A stretch of 64,000 nucleotides of DNA from a virus. The translations under genes were made by a program, and so were the position numbers. The notes under the pieces were generated by a model. It had not been told where the DNA came from and did no database searches. It saw nothing but the letters and a program-made list of their open reading frames with translations. The stretch lies in IMG/VR virus record IMGVR_UViG_3300023223_000479. One strand, written 5' to 3'. This document shows, piece by piece, positions 1,759 through 63,530 of this stretch; the stretch's first letter is position 1; each line of letters opens with the position of its first letter.

Positions 1759-1770
1759 TTTGTAAAATTT

Positions 1771-2199
1771 TTACACCTTAGTACGCCTCTTTTTCTCATT
1801 CACCTGAACATTCATATTAGTAGGCTTCTTGTTGGCTATCATCTTCAATGAAGTATAAGCCTCGTATATCAAAGTAACCACACCACATAGATAGAGCGTG
1901 TATAAGAGACTAACTCCAAACCCTATACCTACGTACCATCCTGGTAGAGATCTATCCACCACAAGCACTATAGTAGCTACAAACATAGGTAAACCTCCGA
2001 ACGTACTACTTTGACATTTATAGCACCCAAGTAGAGGCTTATAGTACCAAGATCCAAGCTCCCTTTTAAACATTTGATTAATACCATAAAGTATTAACCC
2101 CCTCCCCTCATCATCCTTATGATTAGCCGCAATGAACGCTCCTATAATTATAAAAGCGTTCACAAATGAACCTACAACAAAAAACATTAAATACTCCAT
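1771..2199 (-). CDS. Multi-pass membrane protein with CxxC (KPLLGCYKC), DUF1360-like/holin-like
   Basis: About three hydrophobic segments; its stop codon lies inside palindrome 1761. Confidence 0.5.
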   Translation of the reverse strand: MEYLMFFVVGSFVNAFIIIGAFIAANHKDDEGRGLILYGINQMFKRELGSWYYKPLLGCYKCQSSTFGGLPMFVATIVLVVDRSLPGWYVGIGFGVSLLYTLYLCGVVTLIYEAYTSLKMIANKKPTNMNVQVNEKKRRTKV

Positions 2200-2206
2200 A
2201 CCTCAA

Positions 2207-3778
2207 CTATATATTTGTTAACGATTGTTTTGTCTGATCAATTTTATATGATATAGGAATTTGCAGTAACTTATTAACCGAATCTGTTAATATTGATTCC
2301 TCACCCAACACCACTACAGGAGTTAATACATCCATATATCCCTCTGCCACGTATACCTCTGGACTCGTAAAAAAATCTATCAATCTCTCCCTGGTATAAT
2401 CGGATTGGGGTAGCCTATGAGTGAATACTCTAAACTCCTCTCCAAATATCTTATTATATATCTTAATACCTCCCTCTGAGGTTAGGCAATCCTCACACTT
2501 ATAGAACTCCTGAGCCTGGATGTTAAGCTTAAAGAAGCTCTCGCATGTAGCCTCCAATACATCCCACCTTCCGAACTTATTCAAATAGTAAAATACAGTC
2601 CTGCAATTACAGCACTCCCTCTCTTTAGCACTCCTGTAATTAACGGTTACTAATTGGAAAGTTCTAAACCCATCTCCCGATAATACTATAGTGGTTGGTC
2701 CCTCATAGTGAGGTAATATTGTTTCTGATGCGTCTGCTATACCCGTTACATTTATACATAAGATACCATCCCTATCTACATTAATTGCTTCTAAAGAAAT
2801 AACAGGAACTCCTGGAGATTGAGAGGGAAGGGTACTAACCACTATACTCCACTGTATAGGTACAGGATCATTTCCTGATACATGACCATACAGAAACACC
2901 TCAGTACCCGCACATACTTTTAGCTCGTTACCATCTAATACATTCAGATAATTAATATCTGCAAAATTATGATAAGAGTGGTCGAACAATCCTGGAGCCT
3001 CATCTATAGCGCACAAAGCATTAGTAAATGAGTACGTATCAGGAGAGTTAACAAATAGTCCCAATCCACTAGGACCATTCACAGCAAATCTAAAATTCAT
3101 CAATGCCAATGTAGGGTATTGAATGGTTAAGAATGGAGGTAATGTAGCTCCTAATGTAGGTGGTGGTGATTTTATTAAATCCTTAATAAATTGATGTATG
3201 TCTATACACAACTCTACAAATAACTCCCCTGTAAATTTATTTGTGGTTATTAACGGCACTACGAATAAATTATCTATTAAACATATCTCAGCAGGATCTA
3301 ATGAAATATTAACCTGTAGCTGAATACTAATATTGTATGGAGATAATATTACAGGGTCTACTCCCGCCACTAAAAATAACACCCCCAAAGGGGATGTTTC
3401 AGGACCATACACTAGGTCAAACTCAGATCCCGGTTTAAGGGCCGCTATGACTATTATTGGTCCTACCTGAGTTACTAGATAATTAGCAGGAGTTAGAGCC
3501 TCTAAACCTACTATAGCCGCTAATGTATTAATTGTAGTAGCGATAGGGTTAGCCCCTATTAGAATATCAAAGGGTAATGCAGGAGCAACCCTATATGTGA
3601 ATTGATTACCATCTAAAGAAAATGTTTCCCCATCTAGGGGATTAACAACCATCACCAACTGTATAAACCAACTCGTACCAGGGTCTACAATAAAATCTGT
3701 ATCATTAAAGCACAAGCAAAATTTGCAATGTGCTGGATACAATGTATTAGAATCTATTGGCTGTAGGGTTAGGGGCAT
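2207..3778 (-). CDS. Tail/baseplate structural protein (523 aa)
   Basis: Beta-rich; C-terminal YLNKFGRWD segment resembles the conserved 'N..GG.D' motif of Bacteroidota phage tail genes; lies in the structural module. Confidence 0.6.
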   Translation of the reverse strand: MPLTLQPIDSNTLYPAHCKFCLCFNDTDFIVDPGTSWFIQLVMVVNPLDGETFSLDGNQFTYRVAPALPFDILIGANPIATTINTLAAIVGLEALTPANYLVTQVGPIIVIAALKPGSEFDLVYGPETSPLGVLFLVAGVDPVILSPYNISIQLQVNISLDPAEICLIDNLFVVPLITTNKFTGELFVELCIDIHQFIKDLIKSPPPTLGATLPPFLTIQYPTLALMNFRFAVNGPSGLGLFVNSPDTYSFTNALCAIDEAPGLFDHSYHNFADINYLNVLDGNELKVCAGTEVFLYGHVSGNDPVPIQWSIVVSTLPSQSPGVPVISLEAINVDRDGILCINVTGIADASETILPHYEGPTTIVLSGDGFRTFQLVTVNYRSAKERECCNCRTVFYYLNKFGRWDVLEATCESFFKLNIQAQEFYKCEDCLTSEGGIKIYNKIFGEEFRVFTHRLPQSDYTRERLIDFFTSPEVYVAEGYMDVLTPVVVLGEESILTDSVNKLLQIPISYKIDQTKQSLTNI

Positions 3779-3975
3779 ACTCCATTTATAAAAGCCTCAG
3801 TATATGTAAACGTGCTATCCTTCAATAGTGTTTGATCTCCTCCTGTATCGCACTGCACCACTATATCTATCTCAATATTAAAACTCTCTCCCTCCAGTAC
3901 CACAGTACCTACATCTATTTGACGGATAGCATTGAAATCTGTTTCAAAATCTGATTCAGTAAATGTTACTGGCAT
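3769..3975 (-). CDS. Small structural-module protein
   Basis: Acidic 68-aa ORF, co-directional, with a TATATTTG box 4 nt upstream of the ATG. Confidence 0.6.
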   Translation of the reverse strand: MPVTFTESDFETDFNAIRQIDVGTVVLEGESFNIEIDIVVQCDTGGDQTLLKDSTFTYTEAFINGVCP

Positions 3976-3988
3976 AGCACAAATATAG

Positions 3989-4438
3989 TCAAATATTAGT
4001 TAATCGCCTTAGTATCTCCTCGCCTATTCCTAGCTTCTGTATCTCCCTATCCAAGAGCCTCATTAGTATCTTCTCTGATTGGCCTATAAGGTTTATAGGT
4101 CTTCTTGGGTTTGTTGCTATTGAACGGGCTAAAAGGAAATCAGGTATAGATAATCCTTTAGCCGCTTTCCACTTTCTTAACGGTTCCACTAATACAAATG
4201 TATTGCCTACTTTCTTAACGGGAAATTTAGTATTTGCTCTTTTACCTCTCTGTATAAATACGTATCCTCCACCCGCAAACACGTCATATGTAACTAAGTT
4301 ACCTATATGAGTAGTTACTACTCTAATAGAATTTAAAGTAATCTTAGTAACTACTTTCCTATTTCTAACCAAAGGTATTTGAAATACCGTTCTTATCTTC
4401 TTACCTAAGGCTACTGCTCTGCTATTATCTACTGGCAT
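3989..4438 (-). CDS. Putative neck/tail-completion protein
   Basis: Basic 149-aa protein next to the terminator-like gene; call rests on synteny and composition. Confidence 0.45.
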   Translation of the reverse strand: MPVDNSRAVALGKKIRTVFQIPLVRNRKVVTKITLNSIRVVTTHIGNLVTYDVFAGGGYVFIQRGKRANTKFPVKKVGNTFVLVEPLRKWKAAKGLSIPDFLLARSIATNPRRPINLIGQSEKILMRLLDREIQKLGIGEEILRRLTNI

Positions 4439-4459
4439 TATGTAAAAATTTTACACCCC

Positions 4460-7062: not shown

Positions 7063-7083
7063 ACCTGTAAAATTTTTACACCT

Positions 7084-9729: not shown

Positions 9730-10470
9730 TTACCAACAAAACAAATACCTATAAGGGTTCATATAAATATTGTAATCACTATCGATGTATACCCGCTTAC
9801 TTACAGGTATTTTATATAGAAAGTTTCCAAACAATCTCTTTTTAATATTTGTTTCATAGGTTTCATCTGTTATAATCCTCTGCCTACCGTACTCCTTATT
9901 TCTAATTCCCACCCAAACAGCAGATTGAAAATCTCTAGGCTCTACCTGTAACTCCTTGGCTAACTCGGTTATGTAATCCTCTATTTGGGTATACTGCTTA
10001 TCTGTAACGTTATAGTATTTCTTACCGTTCCTCTCTGTAGGTATTAATCCACAAGCTTTAGCTACCCACATATCGCAAACTACAGGTTTATTATCTCCTA
10101 ACATATTCCTTTTAAAGGATTCTATCTTTCTTCCTGCAAAATCCTCCCCTCTCATTGTTTTCTCTATCTGTATAACCATAGCAGGTAGAAAATCCGGCTC
10201 CTCATTATCTCCCATTATATCTAACCCCTCCTGAATCCGGTATAATATTTTTAGGGTTTGGGTTACGTTGGCACTTAGTTGAGTTCTCTGAGATGTAGCG
10301 GCTAATAAGGTTATTACTAATTCCCAATCATACCCGAACAACCATTTTATAAATTTAAGGTTATCCTCATACCAATTGGTATGATCCCTACCCTCCTGGA
10401 AATACTGTATTAGAATATCCCTATCTATATCGATGAGCCTACTACCTGTAAAAATTTTACACTCGCTCAT
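9730..10470 (-). CDS. Phage hypothetical protein, possibly HhH/DNA-glycosylase-like fold (DUF7178-like)
   Basis: NWY...LAATS...N...KIESF..N..G....VVCDMW pattern. ATG overlaps the MTase stop; codons 4-8 (CKIFT) are palindrome 10447. Confidence 0.45.
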   Translation of the reverse strand: MSECKIFTGSRLIDIDRDILIQYFQEGRDHTNWYEDNLKFIKWLFGYDWELVITLLAATSQRTQLSANVTQTLKILYRIQEGLDIMGDNEEPDFLPAMVIQIEKTMRGEDFAGRKIESFKRNMLGDNKPVVCDMWVAKACGLIPTERNGKKYYNVTDKQYTQIEDYITELAKELQVEPRDFQSAVWVGIRNKEYGRQRIITDETYETNIKKRLFGNFLYKIPVSKRVYIDSDYNIYMNPYRYLFCW

Positions 10471-11420
10471 AATCCCATAGTATTTACCATTACTCTTACT
10501 ACCTCCTGCATCAAAGGAACTACTACAGAATTACCGAACTGTTTATAAGCCTGAGTATCAGATACAACTATTTCAAACCAATCAGGAAACCCCATTAACT
10601 TTCTACACTCATTAGGAGTTAATCTCCTGGGATTTTTACCCTCCTGAGGTATTAATATCTCAGATCCATCCTTATAATATCTAGCGCTTAATGTTCTTGT
10701 AGTTCCCTCCAAATCAACCAACCCAAACCCAAACCCGTTACCTTTAAGCTTATGCTTATTTGCATGATTCTGTAAACAAGTCCACAACCCATCTGATAAG
10801 GTATATTTATCAGGTATTTTAATATCTAATATATCTCTAACGCAAGGTACTATAGTAGATATCTCTACCTGATCGAAATCAAATAGTACCTTACCTCCAA
10901 AATATACTTTATCTAGCCCCACAATTAAAATCCTCTCTCTATTTTGAGGTACAAAACCCTTACCATTTAATATTCTATAGCTAACATTATATCCCAGATA
11001 ATTAAGAACATTCGTAATAACTTTGAATGTCCTCCTTTTATCATGATATTTCAAATTCTTTACATTCTCTAATAAGAATGCTTTAGGTCTCTTCTCCTTT
11101 ATTATTCTGGCTACCTCGAAAAATAGTGTGCCCTTGGTTTCATCATAAAATCCATGATCAGCGCCTATACTATTTTTCTTTGAAACTCCAGCCAATGAAA
11201 ACGGCTGGCAAGGAAAACCGCCCACCAATATATCATGATCCGGCACCTCCTTAGCATCTACTAAACCTATATCACCCTCAATTCTACATGCAAAATTATG
11301 CCAATAAGTTTCTCTGGAAAACTTATCTATCTCAGATGAGAAAATACATTTACCTCCATTCTCCTCTAAAGCTATTCTAAACCCTCCAATACCTGCAAAT
11401 AAATCTATAAATGTAAACAT
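10467..11420 (-). CDS. dcm: DNA cytosine-C5 methyltransferase, Dcm/M.EcoRII-like
   Basis: Motifs FIDLFAGIGG, GFPCQPFS, ENVKNL, PQNRERI and QFGNSV. The TRD RTLSARYYKDGSEIL is typical of the Dcm/EcoRII (CCWGG) group. Confidence 0.93.
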   Translation of the reverse strand: MFTFIDLFAGIGGFRIALEENGGKCIFSSEIDKFSRETYWHNFACRIEGDIGLVDAKEVPDHDILVGGFPCQPFSLAGVSKKNSIGADHGFYDETKGTLFFEVARIIKEKRPKAFLLENVKNLKYHDKRRTFKVITNVLNYLGYNVSYRILNGKGFVPQNRERILIVGLDKVYFGGKVLFDFDQVEISTIVPCVRDILDIKIPDKYTLSDGLWTCLQNHANKHKLKGNGFGFGLVDLEGTTRTLSARYYKDGSEILIPQEGKNPRRLTPNECRKLMGFPDWFEIVVSDTQAYKQFGNSVVVPLMQEVVRVMVNTMGL

Positions 11421-11705: not shown

Positions 11706-11755
11706 TCCTACAAAAAATAATTTGTAAAATTTTTACACTCGCTCATATCATCTGA

Positions 11756-12073
11756 TTACTTATTATCACTCTCCCACATCTGCCTAGCATCCTCCCTAAC
11801 CCTCATACAATCCGGCCCTCCTGACTCTCCCTGTAAATATTTTACAATAGTAGCTTCAGATCTGCTATACTTACTTGCTAATATTTTTAGCTTTCTACTC
11901 CTATGCATAGTCCCTAACATATAGGTTATACATTCTAGTACTACCGGCTCTTTTTTACCCTCATCCAGATCATCTGAGTGCTCAAAATTATCTAACTTAA
12001 AATTATCAGGTATCTCTTTCTTATGATTTAAAGGATATTTGTCCTTTCTAAACCAGTTATTCCTACTACCCAT
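11756..12073 (-). CDS. Hypothetical protein (possible HTH)
   Basis: 105 aa, alone between palindromes 11723 and 12083. Confidence 0.6.
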   Translation of the reverse strand: MGSRNNWFRKDKYPLNHKKEIPDNFKLDNFEHSDDLDEGKKEPVVLECITYMLGTMHRSRKLKILASKYSRSEATIVKYLQGESGGPDCMRVREDARQMWESDNK

Positions 12074-12185
12074 AATGGTAACTGTAAATTTTTTACACTC
12101 TGTTTAGTTCTATCCTTAATATCCTAATAATACCCATCAGGCGCAAGCGCCCACAAATTTACCGATTATTGATGGTACAATAGAA

Positions 12186-13040
12186 TCACCTTAAAGCTTT
12201 AGATCTTGTAGTTATTAACTCAGATATAGGGAGTAATCTATTACACTCCTGGTAAGCATAACATTGTCCCTTACAGTACCATATAAGGTTATCGCCTTGA
12301 TCGGTACATCTTATATCTAGCACCTCCCCTTGAGTAAAGTTAGTTAGGGTAAAAATATTAATCATTCTTATTAGCCCGAAACCCTTCAACATCTTCCTAT
12401 AATAACTGCCGGTCATCTTACTGAGATTAAACCACTCACCCACTTTTTTAGCTGATATAGGTCTTAGGATTGCTCCGATGTTAGCAGTCCTCCTCTTACC
12501 CTCCAAATAAGTTTGAGTTCTATGGTTATACCTCAGTATAGAATATATGCAGGATGCTCTTAATGTTCTATTCGACGTTAGGTACTGAGCGGGTATCCTG
12601 GCACTCTGTACCCTCTTCCTGGTATCATTAACATACAATTCGACTACACCCCTCCACCCTCTCACAAAGTCGTCTGTGATCCAGCCTAATCTCTTTAATT
12701 TTTTAATGTGTATATTTGCCGTTTGTCTGGTATAGCCCATCACCATCGATAGCTGCTTCAGGGATACTATATACCTGCCATCACCCGAAACAGTCTTGAA
12801 GTATTTCAGGTATAAATAAGTCCTCAATAGAGGCAGATGATTATTCTTTATTACCTCAACTATAACAGGTAATGGAATATTTATATTATGATCTAGTTGA
12901 AAATTTTTGCTATAACTTACCCGCTCTTTAAAAGAGGTTTCTATTATCTCAGTACCTAAGATTCTGGAGTTATTTATCATACCTTCGACAGTACAACAAA
13001 CGTACTCAAAGCAGCTACAACAAACAAGCAGCGTTAACAC
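12186..13040 (-). CDS. Replication-initiator-like winged-HTH protein
   Basis: HTH-like LKQLSMVMGYTRQTANIHIKKLKRLGWI and a second ISAKKVGEWFNLSKMT; true start probably internal. Confidence 0.45.
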   Translation of the reverse strand: MLTLLVCCSCFEYVCCTVEGMINNSRILGTEIIETSFKERVSYSKNFQLDHNINIPLPVIVEVIKNNHLPLLRTYLYLKYFKTVSGDGRYIVSLKQLSMVMGYTRQTANIHIKKLKRLGWITDDFVRGWRGVVELYVNDTRKRVQSARIPAQYLTSNRTLRASCIYSILRYNHRTQTYLEGKRRTANIGAILRPISAKKVGEWFNLSKMTGSYYRKMLKGFGLIRMINIFTLTNFTQGEVLDIRCTDQGDNLIWYCKGQCYAYQECNRLLPISELITTRSKALR

Positions 13041-15043: not shown

Positions 15044-15191
15044 AATTATAAACGTTGATACTCAAAGGTAAGCTTTATATACTTATGAAGCAAATAAATG
15101 TAAGTTACTTGAAGAGATGTAAAATTTTTACAAGTTGGGCTAGGATAGTAATAGTAGAAAGCTTACCTTTATTTTATAATAAAAAGAAACT

Positions 15192-15467
15192 ATGAACACT
15201 CAAAGCAATACACCTCCAAATAATATCTCTGAAAAAGGATGGACTATGTTATGCGATATAGCCACTGATGCATCTAACAAAAGGGTAGAATTAATACAAA
15301 AATATAAGGCCCAAGGGCAAGGCAATATAGTGGTTAACCTTAAGCATGGTGCTAAATATATTTATGGGGAAACAGTACCCCAACCTTATATACAATTACC
15401 TGGAAAAATAGGTATGCAACAGCAAATAGATGATTGGGATTTATGGAAGTTAACAGATACATTATGA
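15192..15467 (+). CDS. Hypothetical protein in an inverted block
   Basis: Preceded by the AAAGCTTACCTTTA promoter motif; block bracketed by palindromes 15118 and 15793. Confidence 0.7.
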   Translation: MNTQSNTPPNNISEKGWTMLCDIATDASNKRVELIQKYKAQGQGNIVVNLKHGAKYIYGETVPQPYIQLPGKIGMQQQIDDWDLWKLTDTL

Positions 15468-15754
15468 ATCTGATAAAGCAACCAATCATATCCTATAATC
15501 AGTTCCACAGTTCTCACAAATCATTTATTGATTTGGTAACAGGTAAGGTGTATACCTTTGTGAGGACGAATAAAAACAAGTGGTGCCTACAGTATGTGGG
15601 AATCAGGAAAAGCAAAAAACAATGTTTTATGTTGGCTCTAATCTCTGTAAAGTATGAAGTACCAAAGCCGGAATACTATCACTTTTATTGTCCCGGTATA
15701 CGTGCTGGAATCGTAGGTAAAACCAAGAACGGGTTATTTGAGTACGAATATTAA
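15464..15754 (+). CDS. Hypothetical protein in an inverted block (start MNLIKQ)
   Basis: ATGA overlap with the stop of the preceding gene. Confidence 0.65.
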   Translation: MNLIKQPIISYNQFHSSHKSFIDLVTGKVYTFVRTNKNKWCLQYVGIRKSKKQCFMLALISVKYEVPKPEYYHFYCPGIRAGIVGKTKNGLFEYEY

Positions 15755-15802
15755 TATCTATTACTGCTAAGATAAGGCACTTATATACAGCCTATAAAAA
15801 TT

Positions 15803-17413: not shown

Positions 17414-17434
17414 TGTGTAAAAATTTTACACTCT

Positions 17435-17879: not shown

Positions 17880-17902
17880 AATAATAATACGGTAACTGAT
17901 TT

Positions 17903-47143: not shown

Positions 47144-47159
47144 TAAGTCTGTAAAATTT

Positions 47160-51065: not shown

Positions 51066-51112
51066 AGATACCTCTCCTTATCCCTGCTGTCAAGGGTGCA
51101 ATTTTGTCCGTA

Positions 51113-51583
51113 TTAATCCTCTATTAAGAAATTATCCTTCATGATCTGCTCTATTAAAAAATTTAAACAGTATCCTGAAAAATCATCAGGACCAAGAGAA
51201 ACTATTGCCTTGTGCGGTACTTCGATTTCTCCATTGAATTTGAACGTATCTATACCCCCATCAATCAATCTTATAATCTTATATGATTTATAGCGGTCAA
51301 TTCCTTTCTTATTCCTCTTGATTCTCAGAATTTTTATATATCCGTACTTCTTATCATAGAAATTTGCATATAGCTCTATTCTTATTCTAAATCTGATATC
51401 AAACACTCTAAAATTGAAGTACGAAGATTTCAATTCTAAATCACTAAATCCCCTCAAAGTTTTGGCTTCTGCCTCAAGGCATTTCAAAACATCTGACCCG
51501 GTACTCTTTAAAGAGGTATATACAGAATAATATTTCTGGACATTATTTATTTTTTCGCGGCTAAAATTTTCTCTTGAACTCAT
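51113..51583 (-). CDS. Hypothetical protein (island)
   Basis: Own TATATTTG box; codon style differs from flanking genes. Confidence 0.65.
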   Translation of the reverse strand: MSSRENFSREKINNVQKYYSVYTSLKSTGSDVLKCLEAEAKTLRGFSDLELKSSYFNFRVFDIRFRIRIELYANFYDKKYGYIKILRIKRNKKGIDRYKSYKIIRLIDGGIDTFKFNGEIEVPHKAIVSLGPDDFSGYCLNFLIEQIMKDNFLIED

Positions 51584-51754
51584 TGGTAATTAATTGTTTA
51601 TACTCAAATATAGCCCATCCTCACCTCTATATCAAGGGTGCTAATTTTGGTCTTCAAATACACATTTAAAAGTTTCTTATCTTTGTAATTCGTTCTTTAC
51701 CATTGACACTATATCTAGTATAGTTTGTATCCTCGAAACAACCACACTCAAAAG

Positions 51755-51841
51755 ATGCAAAAGACTATACCGGACTCGTATATACATGCGGTTTCGGTTA
51801 CGTTTTTTGCGGGTACGTGGTTGTACCAGGGGATACCGTAA
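51755..51841 (+). CDS. Putative 28-aa peptide
   Basis: MQKTIPDSYIHAVSVTFFAGTWLYQGIP*, preceded by the same 19-bp leader as the next gene. Confidence 0.35.
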   Translation: MQKTIPDSYIHAVSVTFFAGTWLYQGIP

Positions 51842-51880
51842 CAATGAGCCGCATGTTTTTTTATCCTCAAAACAACCACA

Positions 51881-52234
51881 ATGAAATTCTTAATTATATC
51901 GATGTGCCTGTTCTGTAGTACAAACCTATTCTCTCAACCCCCTGTTATATCTCAGGATTCTGTTTTGATTAGAGTCACTACAGCCGGTAACTATTTTAAA
52001 CACTACCATACAGAAAGGAAACGTGCACTATTCTTTGGCGGATTCTTTATAGCCGTTGGGCAAATACCTCTATGGACCGGGATACGTAATGATGAGCAAG
52101 TGGTTAAGTATTTGGGATATGGTACTGTAGGTGCTGGACTCGTTTATTTTATAGTTCAGAGTCTTCATGCTGAGAGATGGTTAAAGCGTGCCGGAATAGA
52201 ATTGAGTGGGGATGGGGTTAAGTTCCTGTTTTAA
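51881..52234 (+). CDS. Secreted/membrane protein
   Basis: Signal peptide MKFLIISMCLFCSTNLFS plus two TM segments; Bacteroidota-style C-terminus (GVKFLF). Confidence 0.75.
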   Translation: MKFLIISMCLFCSTNLFSQPPVISQDSVLIRVTTAGNYFKHYHTERKRALFFGGFFIAVGQIPLWTGIRNDEQVVKYLGYGTVGAGLVYFIVQSLHAERWLKRAGIELSGDGVKFLF

Positions 52235-52448
52235 AAAGCTCCTTTAGCTCAACACCTAAACCCTTAGCAATATTGTATAGCGTTTCAATCCTTGGATTTC
52301 TATGCCCGTTCTCAATCTTGCTGATAGTAGATTTGGGAATTCCAGATACCGCCTCCAGTTCCGACAACGACAAACCAGCTTTTCCCCTTAAATTCCTGAT
52401 CCGTTTCCCCAACTCTGTTTTGAATTCTTTCACGCATAAAGTTTGCAA
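52218..52448 (-). CDS. XRE/Cro-C1 HTH transcriptional regulator
   Basis: LGKRIRNLR...LSLSELEAVSGIPKSTISKIENGHRNPRIETLYNIAKGLGV. Confidence 0.92.
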   Translation of the reverse strand: MQTLCVKEFKTELGKRIRNLRGKAGLSLSELEAVSGIPKSTISKIENGHRNPRIETLYNIAKGLGVELKELFKTGT

Positions 52449-52519
52449 GTTAATATCATTTTAGTGTTGACGTTTTCGACAACGATTTCTATATTGCGCC
52501 ACACCTTCCAAAACAATAG

Positions 52520-52724
52520 TATGAAAACACAATATAGTATTACTATCCCTATCGACCATCCTAAGCCTAGAGAGTATTTGTATCTTTTACATGAGGCAAT
52601 AGGTCAGGTTATGATCCTGGTATTCGAGCGGAGAAAACTTGATTTAGAGGCTTATGAGACTGACTCCTTAGGTACTTTAACAGACTTACAATTGAGGATT
52701 GCTAAACAATTATTCGAGAAATAA
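52520..52724 (+). CDS. Hypothetical protein divergent from the XRE gene (probable start MKTQY)
   Basis: ORF track 52443-52724; first ATG at 52520. Confidence 0.55.
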
Positions 52725-52778
52725 GTAGAGTTTATTTGTAGGGAAATGGGGCTATGGAGGTAGTCCCGTTTTTATTTG

Positions 52779-53383
52779 TCAGGGTGTAAATGGGATTCTC
52801 TCAACGATCAACTCTTCATTCTCCCAAACCTTATTATTCCTATGCCGGTATTCAATACTGTATTTCTCAGGTAGGTATTGGGGGTAGGTGTCTGTGAATT
52901 TCTTTAACGAACGAAAGCCCTCCTTTGATTCGGAAGGCTTCCACTGGATAAGGATTTGGGTTGAATTCATGATCGGTATTTATTTGACGGTTACAAATCT
53001 ATTTGCAGGCCATGAGCTAAATGATCCGTTCATAATTGTAATTCCTTGGAGCGTTACCAGATCGTAATATTTGGCCCCTGACTGATACCATGTTCCCGCT
53101 ACGATTGCTTGTAAGTCTTGCGTTTTGTGTGATACTGTTTTCATCTTTATTTTTAGGTGAGTATCCGTTAAAATGGGCGAAGGTTCATTTTTTGCATTAA
53201 CACCAAGTCGCGCTTTAAGCTTGTGATCATGTACCTGATTGCAAACATTCTCTTGTTAAGGCGAGGATGAAGTTTATTTTTAATCCCTTCGTTCCATTGG
53301 TCGATGAGTTCGTTAATTCTTGTTACTACTTTACTTTGTGATTGTGTGAATGCGTTCATAATCTTTTTCGTTTGGTATACCAC
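52779..53383 (-). other. Three small genes (52779-52970, a 54-aa MKTVSHK... ORF at about 52980-53144, 53168-about 53359)
   Basis: Co-directional operon with a TATATTTG box at 53383-53390. Confidence 0.55.
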
Positions 53384-53507
53384 AAATATATGCGTAATAA
53401 TTGTAATAACCTAGTACTATTTACAATTATGTTAATAATAGTTGTAAATGTTGCGGTATGGTAACGACTCCGTTTTTATTTGTCAATTCTTCATCGTCTT
53501 TTATTGA

Positions 53508-54206
53508 TTACCCTACATATCTAAATAATCTTTCTACTACAGGCTTACCCTCCTCAAGCCTTAAAACAGATTTCATCTCCATCTCCCAAACACACTCAAA
53601 ATCATCAGGAGCATTATATTCAGATATAAATACTATATGGCCCTCCCTAGTCTTTTGTCTGCACCATTCCCAAAATCTAATACCATCAAACTTTGAAACA
53701 TTATATTCAGTAGTTCCTTTATAGGGAGGATCACAATAAATGATAGACTTTTCCGGTATATATAATCTATCGTATTGTCTATAACCTAGCTGTACTCCTT
53801 GCAGTTTTCTCGATTGTCTAACAGCAGCTTTATAGCCAGATTTTATATAATCCTTACCCTTTGAATCTCTTCTCCATCCTCCAAAATACTTACCTCCAAA
53901 ACTTAAATGAAATCCGTAATATCCTTTCATACCAGGATCTTTAGAGGATTTCATTTGATGGTAAATCCCCTCATTTGTATCTGCATTAGATTTAGGTAAC
54001 TCATCAAGCCTATCTCGGATTGTTTCTAATGCTTTTATTGCGTAGAAATTGCTGTCCCCTCCTATACGATTACCGGAAACCTTATCAATCATATTTCCAC
54101 CACCCACAAAAGGCTCAACATAAAATTGTCTATAACCCCTTCTCTCTTTTAGGATTATCTTTAATATATGTTTCGCCAATTTTGTCTTACTCCCCATGTA
54201 TATCAT
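53508..54206 (-). CDS. D12-class N6-adenine DNA methyltransferase (Dam-like)
   Basis: YMGSK, YVEPFVGGG and IYCDPPY motifs. Confidence 0.88.
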   Translation of the reverse strand: MIYMGSKTKLAKHILKIILKERRGYRQFYVEPFVGGGNMIDKVSGNRIGGDSNFYAIKALETIRDRLDELPKSNADTNEGIYHQMKSSKDPGMKGYYGFHLSFGGKYFGGWRRDSKGKDYIKSGYKAAVRQSRKLQGVQLGYRQYDRLYIPEKSIIYCDPPYKGTTEYNVSKFDGIRFWEWCRQKTREGHIVFISEYNAPDDFECVWEMEMKSVLRLEEGKPVVERLFRYVG

Positions 54207-54670
54207 ATACCAATATAACCTCCCTGATTCCCGCTGTCAAGAATACAACAAAACCTTACCTTATACTAAATTCTAAATACTATCCAAATTTATTTTTGAC
54301 TCAGGACTTTTAATGTGTAGCTTCGTACCGTTACACTCTTACAAAATGGGGCAAAGAAAAACCCCTAAGGACTTCAGATCCGAAGGGGTGTAAAAAATTT
54401 ACAAAGTACCTCAAAGGTACTGATTGCTAATGTTATATCCTAACTATGAATATATTCAAAGACAGTAAAGCTATGCCCAAAAAGTACCTTAAAAATCACT
54501 ATAAAACCCGCAATTATTAGCTATCAATTGCTCTTGTTTTACTCCCTCAAATTCTCTGTATTTCAGCCTTTGTTTTTGACAAAAGGTGTCAAGACTCAGA
54601 CGTATATTATAGTAGATTAAAAATCGAAAGCGAGGCTCCGAGTCGAAACTTTGCCCCGCTTTCTCAACAA

Positions 54671-55960
54671 ATGAATGTTATGATCAAGATAGTCAAATCT
54701 AACCGTAAAGTAAGCCCCTTCAGCGGAATCTCTTTTGTTATCAATGAGATTGAAAAAGCCTATATACCCGCACTCATTGATAACTCATTTCCTAAACGTC
54801 ACGGCAGTAGCAAGTACGGATATGCTGATGCAATTCTCTCCCTGATTTATGGTACAATATGCGGGGCTGATAGATTGGATGATTATGCCTCTCTAAAAGG
54901 TAAACTCAACGATTCCTCCCTTAATATTCCCTCTCCTGTATCGTTGGGTAGGATCATGAAAGAGAAACTTAAAACCTCTAATACTGTAGTAGGTAATCAC
55001 ACCATCAACATCAACGAAAGACTCAACGAGTTACTATTGGATATAGCCGTTTCTTTGGGTCAACTCAACGTGAATAACAAATACATTTTAGATTATGATA
55101 ATACCTGCATCCCTTGTGAGAAAGAGGATTCAGATTGGACCTATTTGAAATTTAGAGGGTATCAACCAGGAGTATCCTTTATAGGTCAGATTCCAGTTTA
55201 TATTGAAGGTATGAACGGGAACAATAACGCTAAGTTCGATCAGACCAATACATTAAAGCGCACCCTCTCAAATCTCAAACGGAAAGGAATACAAGTTAAA
55301 GTATTTCGGGCTGATGCTGCCAGTTATCAAAGTGAAATATTTGAGTTAATGACAGAGGAAAACATAACTATTTTTGTACGGGCTGAAAATAATCCTGATC
55401 TGATGGACTTCATAAAATACCACAGATCTAACGCATGGGATACTGTAACGCTGAAATACGACACCTTTGAAATATGTAGCTTTGAATACACACCTTTCAG
55501 CGCACAAAAGAGCTATAGAAAAAACCAGAAAGAATACAGGATAGTTACAGCCCGCAGACCAAGAGCAGATGGTAAGCCACATCATATAACAGGAGAGCCT
55601 TACGTATATCGTTCAATCATTACCGACGACCAAAACATATCAGACTTAGAGGTGATTGCGACCTATAACCAACGTGGCGCAATCGAAAGGAACTTCGATG
55701 TTCTTAATAATGATTGGAACTGGAATAAGCTCCCATTCTCTTTCCTCAGTGAGAATACAGCCTTTATGATCATTACCGCTATGGGGTTAGTTATGTACAA
55801 GTATATCGTTGAGTTATTTGCTGATAGGGTGGATTGGATTGAGGAAACAGATAGGCTAAAGAGGTTTCGGTATAACGTTATATCAGTAGCAGGAGAATGG
55901 GAAGGGGATACTCTTATGATACACGATGAGAGTAGACCCTGGGAGCAGCTTGTGGGGTGA
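54671..55960 (+). mobile_element. IS1380-family transposase (DDE_Tnp_1_4)
   Basis: SPFSGISF N-terminus, LDYDNT, GYQPG, RADAASY and YNQRGAIERNFD match Bacteroidota IS1380 transposases; 429 aa, intact. Element ends not identified. Confidence 0.88.
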
Positions 55961-56080
55961 TATAAGGAACTATATTTGAGAGTAAATGGTTAGGAGATAG
56001 ATACCTCCTTTTTTATTGAACCCCCATTACTTTATCTAAATTCCTTATCATGGTTTAACCTGCTTTCAGTATATTGGAAT

Positions 56081-56305
56081 ATGTCTTTATCAGAATCAGA
56101 AATTAGAGTATTAATTCAAAATCTAAAATGCCCAGATCATGGAAGCAATATAAACTTTAGCCTTACCCCCAAAATTGAGATTCATATCTATCAGAATAAG
56201 CCAGAAGTTATAATAAATAGTAAGGATGTTTGCTGCATAAGATTCTCCCTAATAATCCGCGAAAAAGTAGACCTAGCCCTAAAATCTAGCTTTGAACAGG
56301 GATAA
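56081..56305 (+). CDS. Hypothetical protein (CPDH...CC)
   Basis: 74-aa ORF downstream of the transposase. Confidence 0.5.
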   Translation: MSLSESEIRVLIQNLKCPDHGSNINFSLTPKIEIHIYQNKPEVIINSKDVCCIRFSLIIREKVDLALKSSFEQG

Positions 56306-56534
56306 TAATAACACTTTCCTTATAATCTTCTGTTTGCTTGTATCTATGGGCATCATGAACTACCAAAGTAATATGGCCCTTATGGGTATGATCACCAATT
56401 GTATATTCTACATATCCATTATCAAATATTTTTATATCTGGCTTTAACCCATATATATCCTTGGCTTCGTATAGGAGTTTGGGTGTTGATTCTTCCTTGG
56501 TATTCCTAATATCTTTTTCTTCTGTATGTCCCAT
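56286..56534 (-). CDS. Hypothetical protein
   Basis: 82-aa ORF. Confidence 0.55.
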   Translation of the reverse strand: MGHTEEKDIRNTKEESTPKLLYEAKDIYGLKPDIKIFDNGYVEYTIGDHTHKGHITLVVHDAHRYKQTEDYKESVIIIPVQS

Positions 56535-56677
56535 TTTATATTGCTTTTGTTGGGGTAATTAAGGATGCTTGTGAGGAATTAATTACATTTATTATTATCT
56601 CAATCAGGAATGACTATTGTTCGTTAGAGAAGCTTATTATTTGAAAGATTTAGGTCAAGTAAGGCATAATACAATTA

Positions 56678-57145
56678 TTAATATTTACAAAGCATATTCC
56701 TGGTTTTAGGACCATGCTCTAGGTACTTATCCCACTTTACCCATCCTAACTTAGTCTCAAACCCCCAATCCCTCTTAGATCTACCCATAATAACAAAAGT
56801 AATTACAGGCTTAATTTGATGTTGGGGTAACACTACCCTATGCAAACTCTTGGACCGCCTATAAGCTATACTCAAAAATCCTCTAGTACTGGGTACGGTA
56901 TTTACCGTATGTTTTTTCCTACGGTACTCAATATACTCACCCCTCAATACTATAGATAAAAAGCTCCAAGGATGATCATGCAAACACCTATCCCCATCAC
57001 TTCTATATATCCAATGAATACAAAAAGAAAGTATAGGTGTTTTTAACACGGTCCTCCTATATAAATATATATCATCTCCTTCCTTTACTACCATCTTCTG
57101 CCATAATGCCCACCTTTTCCACCAGAACTTTTCATTTTTACTCAT
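56678..57145 (-). CDS. Cupin-like phage protein (start MSKNEK)
   Basis: CLHDHPWSFLSIVLRGEYIEY...HRV motif; TATCTTTG box 3 nt upstream of ATG 57145. Confidence 0.65.
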   Translation of the reverse strand: MSKNEKFWWKRWALWQKMVVKEGDDIYLYRRTVLKTPILSFCIHWIYRSDGDRCLHDHPWSFLSIVLRGEYIEYRRKKHTVNTVPSTRGFLSIAYRRSKSLHRVVLPQHQIKPVITFVIMGRSKRDWGFETKLGWVKWDKYLEHGPKTRNMLCKY

Positions 57146-57171
57146 ACTCAAAGATACAAAAATTAAGGGTA

Positions 57172-59194
57172 TCAATAAAGGGGAGGCGTCCAAAAGCCTA
57201 AGGCAAACCATCCCCACTGTATCACCCCCTCATAATCACATACCACATAATCCTTATTTGCATTAGCCTTAATACAGCAATCCTCAGCATAACTATATAA
57301 CACTCTATAACTTTTCCACTTGCTCCTATGACCCTTAACTAAAGAGTTTATCTGTCCCTGACCATCTCCATAAATTAAACCTCCATCTGCCAAATAGGGC
57401 TTTAAAGCCAAATCTTTAAACTTATTATCCAATACATAAAACCTATCAGGAGCCTCGATCAACTCAACATGCAAATCTATAGTACGGGTGGTGTCGCTAC
57501 TTGTTCTGTATAACCTGAAATGGTCTAACCAGGAAAGTATTACCCTATCTCTACCCAGAGAATAACCATAATCCTGTAGCACCTTAACCTGGATACCTGC
57601 TATATCTATCAGTGATATACCATAATTCTTTAATAGTTTCCTAGCTCTCCAATTCCACCCATCTCTCATACTCCTACTTATCCAAATCTCTTTGGGTAGT
57701 CCTTTCTTCTTTACTAAAGCTGTTATACGTTTAACTGTAAACATAATTTAATCCTCTCCGAATGAATGAAACAACTGCTCAGTAACTAACCTATCATTAA
57801 CTATCTTAAGCGTTTTACAAAGTTGCTCCGCTGTGAAATTAGATCTTTTTATAGATTCTAACATCTTCCTCACATTCAATGCCTCAGCTACATACTCTAT
57901 CGGTATTCCCTGCCTTAAACACTCACACACATTATTATCCTCAATCATAAGCTGTAAAAATTTTACACCTATATAAATTTAAGAACAGCAGATATACCCT
58001 CTACACTTCCAAACATAACCTCATAAGATAACGTCTGAGTAAAAAAACCGTTCTGCTTCAAATACCACGTACCCCTAGTACATGTAAAAAACACTCCCTG
58101 GGATTTTACCCTAACCCTATATTTAATATTGATCTCTTCTATAGTCATGCTATTCCACTACTTTAAAATTACCTCTACTACATGATTTATCGGGGTCATT
58201 GGATAACTCTACATCACTAGGCCAATCAAAGCATAGTTCCTCATCCGGCATAGCATCATTTACTATCAACTCTACGGTATCCGATTTTAAAGTACTCAAT
58301 ACTTTCTCCCCTCCTGGTAGTACCATTCCAGGCATCACCCCCAACGGTATACTACCCTCACTCTTTTTGAAATACTTCATAAGCGTTTTAGTATTGGCCG
58401 TAACCCTATCCGGTATACCTCGCTCATGAACTATCTTAGCCAACCTCCTAACTACTATATTATCGCTCATGCCCCTACATTAAGTACCAATGCTATATCT
58501 CTGAATCCGCCTATGCTCTTACCCAATATAGCTACCTCAGCATCATGAGGATTGCTTATTCCCAACTTCATACATCCAAACCCATTTAAGCCGTACTGCA
58601 CTCCTTTTATCTCCACCACAGGCATATCTCTAATAGGATGCTTTAACTCCACCACAGCCTCTTTAAACGGCCAAATATTGCCAAATTCATTCCTAGTTAA
58701 AAGAATACTATCTAAGGTAGATGCTCTCTCTATATATTTATCAAATACATTCATAATTATAGATCAGGGTGTACCCTGCAAATTAAAGACGTTAGATTAA
58801 CCACAAAACACGTATCCTCTCCCTCTTTCATATCGAAATTAGCTGTACCCTGCCAATAAGATACAAACCCACTCTCATAAATAGCAGCATATACTTTAAG
58901 CCCTATACCTTTTTCTCCGAAAGAAGATAGCACCATTTTAGTAGAATCCTTTATAGCCTGATAATGACCTATAGGATAATTACCAAACCGCTCAGGATGT
59001 CCTCTGAACTTCTTTAGATCAAACCCTAATTGATTCATTCGGGTAAGTAATAGCAAAAATACTACCTCCTCAAAGCAATAATTACCTCTAGTAGATTTAC
59101 TATCTAGCTTATCAAATATCCTACGTATTCTCCAATTACTAAGCTGAGATATATTTACACCTACCTTACTAAGATCCTGTAATTTATATATCAT
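57172..59194 (-). other. Hypothetical genes 57172-57744, 57748-57948, about 57969-58148, 58150-58470, 58467-58754, 58757-59194
   Basis: Coupled co-directional ORFs. Confidence 0.6.
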
Positions 59195-60983: not shown

Positions 60984-61053
60984 ACTCAAATATACCTACA
61001 ATAGATTATTAAGGCAAAGGTGTAAAATTTTTACAAAGTATTTTAGGTGGAGG

Positions 61054-61098
61054 CTTGTGTGGTAAATATAAAAAGCTTACCTTTATGTTATAACAAAA
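61054..61098 (+). repeat. 45-bp promoter/leader element identical to 11661-11705
   Basis: Exact inverted copy about 49 kb away, again next to a palindrome. Confidence 0.92.
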
Positions 61099-61109
61099 AA
61101 GAAAAAGAA

Positions 61110-61325
61110 ATGAAAACTTCAAAAATAACCGCCGGAACTTACAGCATCACAACAGCAAACGGAAAAGTATTTGTAGCACGTAAAGGAAAAAACGGGTTTT
61201 GGAGTTTGTTTAACTGTAAAGATTCAGATTCGACTCATGAAGATAACTGGCAAGATACCTACAACTCCTTGAAAGAATGTAAGTTAGAGGCAGAAAGATT
61301 CTCTAAGTTTGACCACACTAACTAA
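61110..61325 (+). CDS. Small protein in an inverted single-gene block (start MKTSK)
   Basis: Promoter, gene and terminator lie between palindromes 61021 and 61389. Confidence 0.75.
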   Translation: MKTSKITAGTYSITTANGKVFVARKGKNGFWSLFNCKDSDSTHEDNWQDTYNSLKECKLEAERFSKFDHTN

Positions 61326-61372: not shown

Positions 61373-61404
61373 GTATTTTCCACTGATCTGTAAAATTTTT
61401 ACAC

Positions 61405-61767
61405 CTACGAAGTCTTCGCAAAGATCTTCACAAATGCTACAAACTTAACCGCTACGTTCGTTAGTAAGTCCTGACCATTTTTAAGGTTATGATCCAATCT
61501 CTCAAGTATCGCCCATGAATCTACGGTATTTGCTAACTTATAATCAGCCGTTAGCTTAGTGATAATGGCCGTATTGATCTCAGCCATTATATTAGTGAAG
61601 GTAGTAGTCTCTGTAGCATTCTCTACCGTTGCACGGGGAATATCTATAATAAGCTCCTTAGCCTCATACTCATCATCTGTGAACTCAACTACAGCAGCAG
61701 GAATAAACCCCTCTGGGATCAATTCTGGAGGTATACCTAATTTAGTTCCGTTGTGATTTAAAGCCAT
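61405..61767 (-). CDS. Putative virion protein, paralog of 61773-62147
   Basis: Shared pattern NGTK.G.P..LIP...P.V..F......K......P.A.VENA. Confidence 0.7.
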   Translation of the reverse strand: MALNHNGTKLGIPPELIPEGFIPAAVVEFTDDEYEAKELIIDIPRATVENATETTTFTNIMAEINTAIITKLTADYKLANTVDSWAILERLDHNLKNGQDLLTNVAVKFVAFVKIFAKTS

Positions 61768-62147: not shown

Positions 62148-62212
62148 TGATATCTATATTAATATTTTTTAGAAAAACAAATATAATAATTTTATATCTG
62201 ATTATCAAACTT

Positions 62213-62653
62213 TTATAAGACAGTTATAATAACCCCTGCTGACTCCTTATCTATTACGACCTGAGGATCAACTACAGGTACTATATGTTTGTAGTCGTCG
62301 TCCGGTATCCAGGCTACCCTATCACTGTATCCTGGATGTTTTTTATCTAGGTGCTTATACTTTTGCCCTGACATACAATCTAAGAGGGTTTCGATAGGGT
62401 TCACAAAATCAAACCTCCTCTTATCCGTTCTTATAAACTTAAATTTAATATGTAGAGGATACGGCTTATCCTTGGTTAAGTTTTGAAACACTTTCTTATG
62501 CTTAACCCAATACTTAAGAGTAGCGGATATATACTCCTTAACCCGCTTATTATCTACCAACTTAGGAAACTTACCCGCCCGTACTATCTCCTTACCATTC
62601 TTAGCAGAGGGTACATTTCCAGGTATGTATATTTGATTGTCCTTTAATTCCAT
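62213..62653 (-). CDS. RusA-like Holliday junction resolvase
   Basis: IPGNVPSAKNG...RRFDFVNPIETLLDCM...WIPDDD. Confidence 0.7.
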   Translation of the reverse strand: MELKDNQIYIPGNVPSAKNGKEIVRAGKFPKLVDNKRVKEYISATLKYWVKHKKVFQNLTKDKPYPLHIKFKFIRTDKRRFDFVNPIETLLDCMSGQKYKHLDKKHPGYSDRVAWIPDDDYKHIVPVVDPQVVIDKESAGVIITVL

Positions 62654-62661
62654 AGTCCTAT

Positions 62662-63258
62662 CTAATTCGCATCTCTAATCTTTCCTTTAAGATCATGCTT
62701 CTTAATGAGGTATGCCCTTATTTTTTCTAACTTATCCCAACACTTCATCTCATTTCTAACCTGACCTACCCCGTTATCCATATGGGTATGACACTCGCAA
62801 CATGTAGGTACTTGATTCTCTTTATCCAGCACTAGCCCCTCATGCCCTCCACACTCACCTACTCCTATTACATGGGCATAATTACAAGCTTCATTACAGC
62901 TTAACCACCTACCACACTCTATACAATAATTATTTTCTTCATCTAACCATTCCTCCTTTAATTCAAGCCGTACTAACCTTAATTTAGCCTTAATATCTTT
63001 ATTTTGCTTTGTTTGCTGTTTGATGCGCTGTGAGGAGCTATCTTTTGATTTTGATACTCTCGTATCAGAATACCTTAGATAACTCCTCCTGCCGTATGTA
63101 GTGACTACGTAATCACCTATATTAGATTCCTCCTTAACCCTATCCTGCCACTTCTTAGTACTATCCTTCTGATACTCATTATAATGATTCCAACACCTAC
63201 TAAGTTTCCTGGCTACCTCTTGACATCCCTTAACACTGCATATTTGTATTTTACCCAT
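62662..63258 (-). CDS. NinG/HNH-like protein (start MGKIQ)
   Basis: N-terminal CSVKGC...C..H and C-terminal CIECG...AHVI...CCECH. The tracked N-terminal extension runs through palindrome 63260. Confidence 0.65.
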   Translation of the reverse strand: MGKIQICSVKGCQEVARKLSRCWNHYNEYQKDSTKKWQDRVKEESNIGDYVVTTYGRRSYLRYSDTRVSKSKDSSSQRIKQQTKQNKDIKAKLRLVRLELKEEWLDEENNYCIECGRWLSCNEACNYAHVIGVGECGGHEGLVLDKENQVPTCCECHTHMDNGVGQVRNEMKCWDKLEKIRAYLIKKHDLKGKIRDAN

Positions 63259-63283
63259 CTGTAAAAATTTTACACCTCTAAAC

Positions 63284-63496
63284 TTATAAGTCATTAACAG
63301 CATTTAATGCAGTTGTTAAAGACTTAACTACTTCCTTTATATTTTTAACCCCCTTCAATCCATCCAAAGCAATCTCTATCTCATCCTCAAGATGATGTAA
63401 CTTTGCATGTAGCATATGACACTCAGCCACAGCTAACAAATATTTTGTATCCTGAGAGGGACAATCAACCTGCTCAGATTTTGGTATATAATTCAT
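63284..63496 (-). CDS. Hypothetical protein
   Basis: Single gene between palindromes 63260 and 63514. Confidence 0.6.
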   Translation of the reverse strand: MNYIPKSEQVDCPSQDTKYLLAVAECHMLHAKLHHLEDEIEIALDGLKGVKNIKEVVKSLTTALNAVNDL

Positions 63497-63530
63497 TGCT
63501 TATTAAATTAATTTGTAAAATTTTTACACC

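Follow-up and report, generated by a model that had tools for sequence, protein, structure and literature searches.

A lineage-specific 15-bp palindrome repeated at the gene junctions of an uncultivated Bacteroidota-type phage: possible dispersed operators

The window analysed in this study, 64,000 nucleotides of the IMG/VR record IMGVR_UViG_3300023223_000479, is part of a phage genome in which a 15-bp palindrome, TGTAAAAWTTTTACA, recurs at gene junctions from one end to the other. Coding is mostly on the minus strand (110 of the 125 called open reading frames, ORFs), with a strong negative GC skew. The genes include terL (15803-17413) and those for two SF1 helicases, a ThyX-like protein, a cytosine methyltransferase, a primase-like protein and the transposase of an insertion sequence (IS), and according to a protein database the proteins of the window belong to a contig of 94.8 kb. 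No close relative was found among cultured phages, megablast giving no match and terL identity being below 25%; TerL homologues of approximately 40% identity were found on metagenomic contigs of 60-110 kb and in Raineya (Bacteroidota) bins. The phage is uncultivated and its host is of the Bacteroidota type.

Twenty-eight exact copies of TGTAAAAWTTTTACA were counted in the window, the first at 1761 and the last at 63514-63528, together with eight copies carrying one mismatch (11832, 12083, 15793, 28072, 38210, 42140, 49087, and 54389), 36 in total. The initial annotation, made from the sequence without database searches, had the exact copies and their positions right and had counted seven one-mismatch copies instead of eight. 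Two-mismatch copies were looked for across the window and none was found; the motif family is thus sharply bounded. No exact copy occurred in 100 dinucleotide-preserving shuffles of the window, and the split of the central base given in that annotation on the plus strand (T in 18 exact copies, A in 10) was reproduced by the recount. The density is approximately one site per 1.8-2 kb. Even spacing along the DNA was rejected, as clusters 25-200 bp apart and gaps of up to 5-6 kb were observed. The largest gap is 5.1 kb (17416 to 22540), as previously given, when one-mismatch copies are counted, and 7.6 kb (50302 to 57953) between exact copies. The latter stretch covers an island with the IS and contains a single one-mismatch copy, at 54389. 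One-mismatch variants are concentrated at the innermost base pair, and the flanks of the palindrome are symmetric after allowing for the G-rich coding strand.

Nearly all copies lie in, or overlap, tiny intergenic gaps, as had been described. The usual order on the coding strand is stop codon, 0-5 nt, palindrome, 1-8 nt, and ATG. At least 18 of the 28 exact copies lie within 10 nt past a stop and none lies deep inside an ORF; in 8 of the 28 the upstream gene's stop is the TAA inside the palindrome. Two of all 36 copies are inside an ORF, and the palindrome abuts the ATG at approximately 40% of sites. Both ends of terL are marked, as first noticed, with an exact copy on the start side (17416) and a one-mismatch copy at the stop (15793).

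A promoter consisting of TTAG, a 20-nt spacer and TAnnTTTG recurs in the window, and we take it to be the Bacteroidota -33/-7 type. It is found as a cassette (TTAGGA -33 box, 20-nt spacer, and TAccTTTG -7 box within GCTTACCTTTG) in approximately 13 copies in the window, for example at 26360-26418, 15133-15180, 44317-44360, and 36130-36180, and in approximately 16 copies in a second palindrome-bearing genome, G001 (described below), where some 75 bp hardly differ from one cassette to the next, including the 5′ leader and first codons (ATGAAA). About one third of the sites are 4-6 bp upstream of the -33 box of such host-type promoters; the distance from the palindrome end to the TTAGGA box was 4-6 nt where this box was read directly. 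Measured to the TTACCTT box, the palindrome ends 22-25 nt before it at most promoter cassettes of G001, and the distances in the window are 27-55 nt. Each of four minus-strand terminators (stems at 26476, 28116, 31443, and 35143) is followed by a palindrome within 8-15 nt, and a host-type promoter follows the palindrome at three of these four sites. Reading of the sequence beside the start-abutting sites revealed no -33/-7 boxes on either side; those copies must therefore lie inside polycistronic transcripts. The sites are listed below in window coordinates, without strand for the palindromes; a number after G001 is the position of the orthologous site in that genome.

1761-1775: exact; gives the TAA stop of ORF 1771-2199; next ATG 2 nt on; G001 52889
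4441-4455: exact, junction; 4 nt past a stop, 2 nt before an ATG; G001 55623
7066-7080: exact, junction; 3 nt from a stop, 3 nt from an ATG; G001 58511
10447-10461: exact; codons 4-8 of ORF 9730-10470; in the left copy of a 25-bp repeat at the methyltransferase module; G001 60196
11723-11737: exact; in the right copy of the 25-bp repeat; TTACCTT box of a host-type promoter 40 nt downstream, minus strand
11832-11846: one mismatch; within ORF 11756-12073
12083-12097: one mismatch; 9 nt upstream of the ATG of ORF 11756-12073; G001 61134
15118-15132: exact; between divergent host-type promoters (TTACCTT boxes at 15071, minus, and 15163, plus) and thus upstream of both starts; G001 64185, same layout
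15793-15807: one mismatch; overlaps the terL stop and closes the plus-strand block 15192-15754; G001 64554
17416-17430: exact; 2 nt upstream of the terL ATG; without counterpart in G001
22540-22554: exact; gives the stop of ORF 22550-22867; 89 nt upstream of a gene for a 351-residue protein; G001 71529
25981-25995: exact; 12 nt upstream of the gene for an 834-residue protein; G001 74927
26360-26418, minus strand: example of the host-type promoter; TTAGGA -33 box 5-6 nt past the palindrome, 20-nt spacer, TAccTTTG -7 box
26419-26433: exact; intrinsic terminator (26476-26448) on one side, host-type promoter (box at 26390) on the other
28072-28086: one mismatch; terminator (28116-28094) on one side, promoter (box at 28021) on the other
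30233-30247: exact, junction; 2 nt past a stop
31400-31414: exact; 8 nt past the terminator stem 31443-31422
32089-32103: exact; gives the stop of ORF 32099-32446
35097-35111: exact; terminator (35143-35124) on one side, promoter (box at 35041) on the other
35178-35192: exact; gives the stop of the primase-like gene 35188-36147
36181-36195: exact; gives a stop; promoter TTACCTT box 27 nt downstream
38210-38224: one mismatch; 3 nt upstream of an ATG
38753-38767: exact; 2 nt upstream of an ATG
40556-40570: exact; 2 nt past a stop; promoter box 47 nt downstream
42140-42154: one mismatch, junction; 3 nt upstream of an ATG
44302-44316: exact; 27 nt upstream of the promoter box of the plus-strand gene 44370-44627
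44628-44642: exact; between convergent stops (44627, plus; 44638, minus)
45685-45699: exact; 2 nt past a stop; next ATG 38 nt on
47150-47164: exact; 6 nt upstream of the gene for a 419-residue helix-turn-helix protein; G001 10254
49087-49101: one mismatch; 13 nt upstream of the ThyX-like gene
50302-50316: exact, junction; 2 nt from a stop, 2 nt from an ATG
54389-54403: one mismatch; between a Dam-like methyltransferase gene and the IS transposase gene
57953-57967: exact, junction; 1 nt past a stop, 4 nt before an ATG
61021-61035: exact; 41 nt upstream of the promoter box of the plus-strand gene 61047-61325
61389-61403: exact; 1 nt past the stop of ORF 61405-61767, then a minus-strand hairpin with a T run; G001 17107
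63260-63274: exact; 1 nt upstream of an in-frame ATG of ORF 62662-63303
63514-63528: exact; 2 nt past the stop of an SbcC-like gene

Scanning of 2.9 million viral contigs with the motif, to which GG was added at the 5′ end, gave multiple matches in one other contig only, IMGVR_UViG_3300009788_000005 (G001), a complete genome of 85.8 kb with 44 exact copies of the same 15-mer. Bacterial matches, among those listed, were each single copies and came from diverse taxa. With multiple viral matches confined to G001 and the listed bacterial matches single, the motif is not equally common in hosts or other phages; equal frequency there is what the initial annotation had considered damaging to its proposal. 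A host-genome motif or an effect of AT-richness was rejected.

Between G001 and the window no alignable DNA was found; synteny was observed at the protein level, with identities of 30-75% (70% for terL). Sixteen window sites have a flanking gene with a G001 orthologue and could be tested for conservation of position. At 11 of these 16, a palindrome is present at the same junction in G001, in which approximately 38% of all junctions have one.

The neighbourhood of terL was surveyed in 71 related loci, and most of these phages showed repeated promoter cassettes only. Palindromes of other sequence were found in three of the relatives. In G002 (62.8 kb), TTAAAGTWACTTTAA occurs in 31 exact and 7 one-mismatch copies, with a dyad extending to 17 bp, and G003 (80.5 kb) has 27 copies of TAAAGTWACTTTA; these two form one clade, with a palindrome that differs from the window's and is of the same build. 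In L139 (JGI Ga0564963_000009, a 109.9-kb contig), 11 copies of GGTTAAAC-N-GTTTAACC were counted within 22.6 kb. The terL tree joins L139 and the window clade as sisters (support 100/100), and the half-sites of L139 and those of the window have KTAAA in common in the same register. No high-copy palindrome was found in G006-G010, five complete or nearly complete relatives. One of them, G006 (IMGVR_UViG_3300025645_000067), is without the G002/G003 motif and has 6-7 copies of a 16-bp palindrome, TTTTATA-NN-TATAAAA.

Placement was also compared among these genomes. Counted from the palindrome centre, the A of the ATG is most often 9 nt away in G002, 10 nt away in the window, and 11 nt away in G001; in G002 the ATG directly follows the 17-bp dyad at 14 sites. 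In-frame copies deep within large genes (PolA, helicases, DnaB-like, and SbcC-like) make up 7 of 36 in G002 and 9 of 27 in G003, and function therefore cannot be tied strictly to gene starts. In L139 most copies adjoin terminators where transcription units end, and proximity to a start codon is rare; a TTGACA lies downstream by 5 nt at two copies and by 35-38 nt at three. Fifteen promoter cassettes of nearly the same sequence (TTGACA...TAtcTTTG) were seen in this part of L139 (1-22595; 22.6 kb). A second palindrome, GAAAAATATTTTTC, precedes many of them, and nearly all small genes there are served by a promoter and a terminator of their own. Over four genomes, the centre base on the coding strand is A in 87 of 130 sites; this bias may reflect A-rich leaders preferred upstream of starts in this type of host.

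Several observations bear on whether the element is read as DNA or as RNA. At least five window sites lie outside predicted transcripts, and at least these copies in predicted untranscribed spacers would act as DNA. Folded as single-stranded DNA, the 15-mer forms a weak hairpin (-2.6 kcal/mol). It does not have the make-up of an intrinsic terminator, its stem being all A/T but for one G-C pair, and true terminators are separate elements adjoining the sites. One-mismatch copies (e.g. TATAAAA...) disrupt the stem, and no compensating changes in the two arms were found among the copies. The palindromes are thus real, under selection, symmetric, and partly in DNA that is predicted to be untranscribed. 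Recognition of double-stranded DNA by a symmetric dimer is favoured by the predicted untranscribed sites, the weak hairpin, the uncompensated mismatches, and the symmetric flanks. Genes with or without the motif have no Shine-Dalgarno sequences. A hairpin-split Shine-Dalgarno site, as in the T4 gene 38 idea, was rejected because motif-free genes likewise have none, and the G-rich flank was rejected as such a site because it is present on either side of the palindrome, reflecting a coding strand rich in G.

Candidate proteins for reading the site were sought in G001, G002, and G003, the three palindrome-bearing relatives that were fetched in full. All three have a ParB-like ORF (phrog_1033) of 376-385 amino acids in which a helix-turn-helix and a GxRR motif were recognised. 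G002 and G003, whose palindrome motif is shared, have almost the same recognition helix, and that of G001 differs. For the G003 protein the best sequence match in the PDB is KorB (E 1.6e-4); the structure model of the G001 protein (pLDDT 43) was too poor and was not used. A ParB/KorB-like protein of approximately 380 amino acids is the best, as yet unproven, candidate for the binder, and in the window phage its gene would lie outside the window. Two of the binders proposed in the initial annotation appear unlikely because no homologue was detected in G001, which uses the same motif: the XRE protein at 52218, which lies in the site-free island, and the supposed ParB-like ORF 41010-41642, in which Pfam and PHROGs gave no ParB signal. 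The other two, the 419-residue helix-turn-helix protein (45884-47143) and a winged-helix protein of 284 amino acids (12186-13040), are conserved in G001 at 43% and 48%, respectively, and may still be binders. For the former, five remote homologues were found among 1.8 billion representatives, and the match in G002/G003 was marginal (E = 0.004). Small plus-strand ORFs and conserved ORFs were considered as repressors and dropped, as no Pfam signal was obtained.

Neither a T7-like RNA polymerase nor sigma region 2 was detected in G001, G002, or G003, with the limit that positive controls of the PF00940 search likewise gave nothing; PF04542 gave no match, and PF08281 gave a weak helix-turn-helix match only, inside the ParB-like ORF. 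No tyrosine integrase was found in these three genomes, and a serine recombinase was found in G003 only; the complete G001, with its 44 sites, thus has neither, and no recombinase is common to the palindrome-bearing genomes. Most large ORFs of G001 match replication or virion families in Pfam/PHROGs, and several have no match. The 834-residue protein (23464-25968) is conserved in the clade, with 59% identity in G001 and 46% in L139. Its AlphaFold model (pLDDT 79) contains an 85-residue helix and has no PDB match by Foldseek or VIA-align; it was rejected as a polymerase, since this confident model gave no polymerase-like match.

Other features of the window were as follows. The island (51100-56600) has genes on mixed strands, no exact palindrome, and a weak GC skew; it contains a Dam-like D12 methyltransferase gene (53508-54206) and the IS, with a DDE_Tnp_1_4 transposase gene on the plus strand (54671-55960). 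The ThyX-like ORF (47766-49073) encodes 435 amino acids, the first 110 of which match ThyX (Pfam Thy1, positions 1-118 of 191), and the other 325 have no match. A tRNA-Met with anticodon CAT was called by ARAGORN at 33480-33549 (minus strand). The 25-bp direct repeat (10447-10471 and 11723-11747; ATGAGCGAG plus the palindrome, minus strand) flanks the cytosine methyltransferase module, and one copy begins a real gene, the other a 12-codon stub.

Dispersed operators are established for phages L5 and P1 and for KorB of plasmid RK2. The stoperators of Cluster A mycobacteriophages (L5 gp71) and the P1 C1 operators resemble the present palindromes in numbering tens of sites genome-wide, mostly in short intergenic gaps, and silencing there is global. 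The sites in those systems lack symmetry, and stoperators follow the direction of transcription, whereas the window site and its flanks are symmetric and only the centre base is biased (87:43); those phages are demonstrably temperate, whereas lysogeny is putative here, the IS in the window hinting at residence in a cell.

In the initial annotation the system was regarded as undescribed. The motif string was absent from the papers searched; the kind of repeat, however, is described, since an invariant 17-bp dyad repeat is present 34 times, in small gaps between genes, in Cluster O mycobacteriophages (PMC4351075). That repeat (TGTTCGG-N3-CCGAACA, in Corndog and relatives) is like the window's palindrome in having more than 30 copies per genome, invariant 7-bp arms (TGT...ACA), an AT-rich free centre, locations mostly in small intergenic gaps or at gene starts, low numbers in hosts, positions conserved among relatives, some indels flanked by copies, and a presumed dimeric binder. 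The two differ in sequence, spacer (1 nt here versus 3 nt), host phylum, and phage family; copies inside ORFs are 2 of 36 in the window versus about a third in Corndog, and here related lineages have different palindromes, with many copies at a set distance upstream of promoters. In copy number, intergenic placement, and phage-group specificity, the palindrome falls into the same descriptive class of genome-wide dyad repeat as that of Cluster O. The motif itself, the lineage variants with a common core, the geometry at Bacteroidota promoters, and the candidate reader are new.

The OB sites of KorB, palindromes with a degenerate centre, act 4 bp upstream of the -35 box or from 1.5 kb away (PMC11790492). 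Like the phage palindromes, these 13-bp operators of the IncP plasmid RK2, read by a ParB-family cytidine triphosphate (CTP) clamp, are of odd length with a free central base and are spread over the replicon, some copies lying just before the upstream promoter box, at a distance of a few bp, and others remote from promoters, and a ParB-family protein of similar size is encoded in G001, G002, and G003. The differences are that RK2 has about a dozen sites versus 36-49 here, that no KorA-like partner is known here, that binding is predicted here, and that ParB-like genes are also present in relatives without palindromes.

The reading we prefer, with a probability of roughly 0.4, is that the palindromes are dispersed operators for a phage-encoded dimeric regulator of genome-wide transcription. 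It rests on the conservation of sequence identity and not of structure (28 exact copies, 8 one-mismatch copies, and no compensated arms). Also in its favour are the 44 copies in G001, the 11 of 16 junctions at which the site is kept, the other palindromes of one build in related lineages, the symmetric flanks, the sites in DNA predicted to be untranscribed, the distances to host-type promoters, the likeness to KorB OB sites, and the ParB-like ORF of G001, G002, and G003. A homodimeric phage protein would bind the palindromes on double-stranded DNA and thereby control transcription over the whole genome. At about a third of the sites it would sit 4-6 bp upstream of the -33 box and could touch or block the host RNA polymerase, and at the other sites, between genes of one operon, it would be a roadblock or a loading point; the net effect is thought to be negative, as silencing or temporal shut-off. 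That a protein binds, which protein it is, and the sign of regulation are what we infer. The earlier proposal of a protein-recognised dyad gains support, since the element is selected, phage-specific, and truly symmetric, and a sequence-specific protein would be its most economical reader.

Several points weigh against such operators. Start-abutting sites inside operons have no promoter to regulate, and a roadblock in essential operons of a phage without a detected tyrosine integrase or serine recombinase requires extra explanation. The bias for A at the centre is not predicted by a purely symmetric DNA site, and the fixed promoter spacing in G001 may stem from duplication of one cassette of about 75 bp and not from selection. 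As to the candidate reader, phrog_1033 proteins are also present in the five relatives without high-copy palindromes, so that protein and sites do not co-occur, and the recognition helix of G006 is similar to that of G002/G003, yet G006 has none of their motif.

A more specific possibility, on which we would not rely, is that the palindromes are loading sites for a ParB/KorB-type CTP-dependent clamp, expanded from a few centromere sites to 30-50 and serving to silence or time a 95-kb genome, the sequence co-evolving with the clamp in each lineage.

Unlikely is a phage-specific middle or late start signal, read by an unrecognised phage factor or polymerase, maybe as an extruded hairpin in the manner of phage N4, and giving leaderless or short-leader mRNAs gene by gene. 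The peaks in the centre-to-ATG distance (9, 10, and 11 nt) fit such a signal. Promoters of the N4 virion RNA polymerase are hairpins with stems of 7 bp or less, a loop centre at -11 and a binding region from -17 to -5 (PMC4496689); the likeness extends to palindromes of 13-17 nt, a stem of 5-7 bp, a possible 3-nt loop, and a centre approximately 10-11 nt from the would-be message start. Leaderless starts are conceivable in a host type that does not use Shine-Dalgarno sites, the density of one per 1.8-2 kb is like that of T4 promoters, and a copy upstream of a host-type promoter could be a second, later promoter for the same gene. However, N4 has few such promoters, with a special G-rich loop and a giant polymerase, whereas here the loop is A/T and no polymerase gene was found: G001, G002, and G003 are without detected T7-like RNA polymerase or sigma region 2, most large G001 ORFs (several have no match) fall into replication or virion families, and the confident model of the 834-residue protein has no polymerase-like fold. 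Perfect two-fold symmetry is unexpected for a directional promoter, the single-strand hairpin is weak, and the L139 palindrome is rarely near a start codon.

We give less credence to an architectural, parS-like array that loads a ParB-type clamp for plasmid-like prophage segregation, condensation, or marking for replication or packaging, without acting on transcription directly. In its favour, all relatives examined encode a ParB-like protein, known parS and OB sites are likewise palindromes (13-16 bp), the IS suggests long residence of the phage genome in a cell, and the in-frame sites of G002/G003 in PolA, helicase, DnaB, and SbcC genes lie where no junction is available. Site density, however, tracks the number of gene junctions and not DNA length, with clusters of 25-200 bp and gaps of up to 5-6 kb, and ParB-like genes also occur in palindrome-free relatives.

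Next, and improbable in our view, are recombination linkers, that is, cassettes gained, lost, or inverted by exchange between copies, with conservation as a by-product. The 25-bp direct repeat that flanks the methyltransferase module contains the palindrome, all three short plus-strand blocks are bracketed by copies (15118/15793, 44302/44628, and 61021/61389), a palindrome-plus-promoter head is reused in opposite orientation at 11.7 kb and 61.0 kb, and in the window and G001 alike palindromes cut the variable regions between orthologous anchors into cassettes. Exchange between repeats has been proposed for Cluster O (PMC4351075) and for the PeSL cassettes of T4-type phages (PMC2839356, PMC4122927). 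PeSLs are likewise repeated regulatory cassettes bordering small accessory genes with modular shuffling, to which the terminator-palindrome-promoter composites at three window sites and the promoter head duplicated 49 kb apart may be compared; the PeSL itself, though, is promoter plus terminator, whereas the 15-bp element is separate, also stands alone between common genes, and in relatives lies inside genes. The check on synteny breakpoints suggested in the initial annotation gave the expected direction (odds ratio 3.6), but the enrichment was not significant (p = 0.18, with crude gene calls). Furthermore, 11 of the 16 sites that could be tested recur at the orthologous junction in G001, in several cases with genes common to both genomes on either side; 15 bp is short for homologous exchange; and the sites within large conserved genes of G002/G003 are not cassette borders. 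The dedicated cassette recombination that the annotation had offered is weakened, as is an integron attC-like system, by the failure to find a cognate tyrosine or serine recombinase in the complete G001. We read recombination as probably a consequence of many identical sites and not their purpose, as has been proposed for Cluster O and the PeSLs.

Very unlikely are hairpin promoters that would start leaderless mRNAs one gene at a time, in a host type that has no Shine-Dalgarno sites, and, to the same degree, an RNA hairpin in polycistronic mRNA acting in translational control, re-initiation, or endonucleolytic processing at junctions, for although the position between stop and start with approximately 40% of sites abutting the ATG, the coding-strand A at 87 of 130 centres, and the gathering of one-mismatch variants at the innermost pair, the would-be loop, suit the RNA hairpin, the sites outside predicted transcripts, the stem-disrupting mismatches without compensation, the weak fold, and the L139 copies beside terminators at transcription-unit ends do not.

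Dyad repeats spread over whole phage genomes have been on record since at least 2015 with no function assigned, and environmental Bacteroidota phages of the present type are a large group that is almost wholly uncharacterised. Three related lineages with three palindromes of one build, orthologous sites that survive complete divergence of the DNA, a defined geometry at promoters of the Bacteroidota type, and a short list of putative binders make this a favourable system. If the ParB/KorB-like candidate is the reader, clamp-based long-range silencing would extend from plasmids to phages; if it is not, the sites still mark the borders of transcription units and cassettes and would aid the annotation of environmental Bacteroidota phages.

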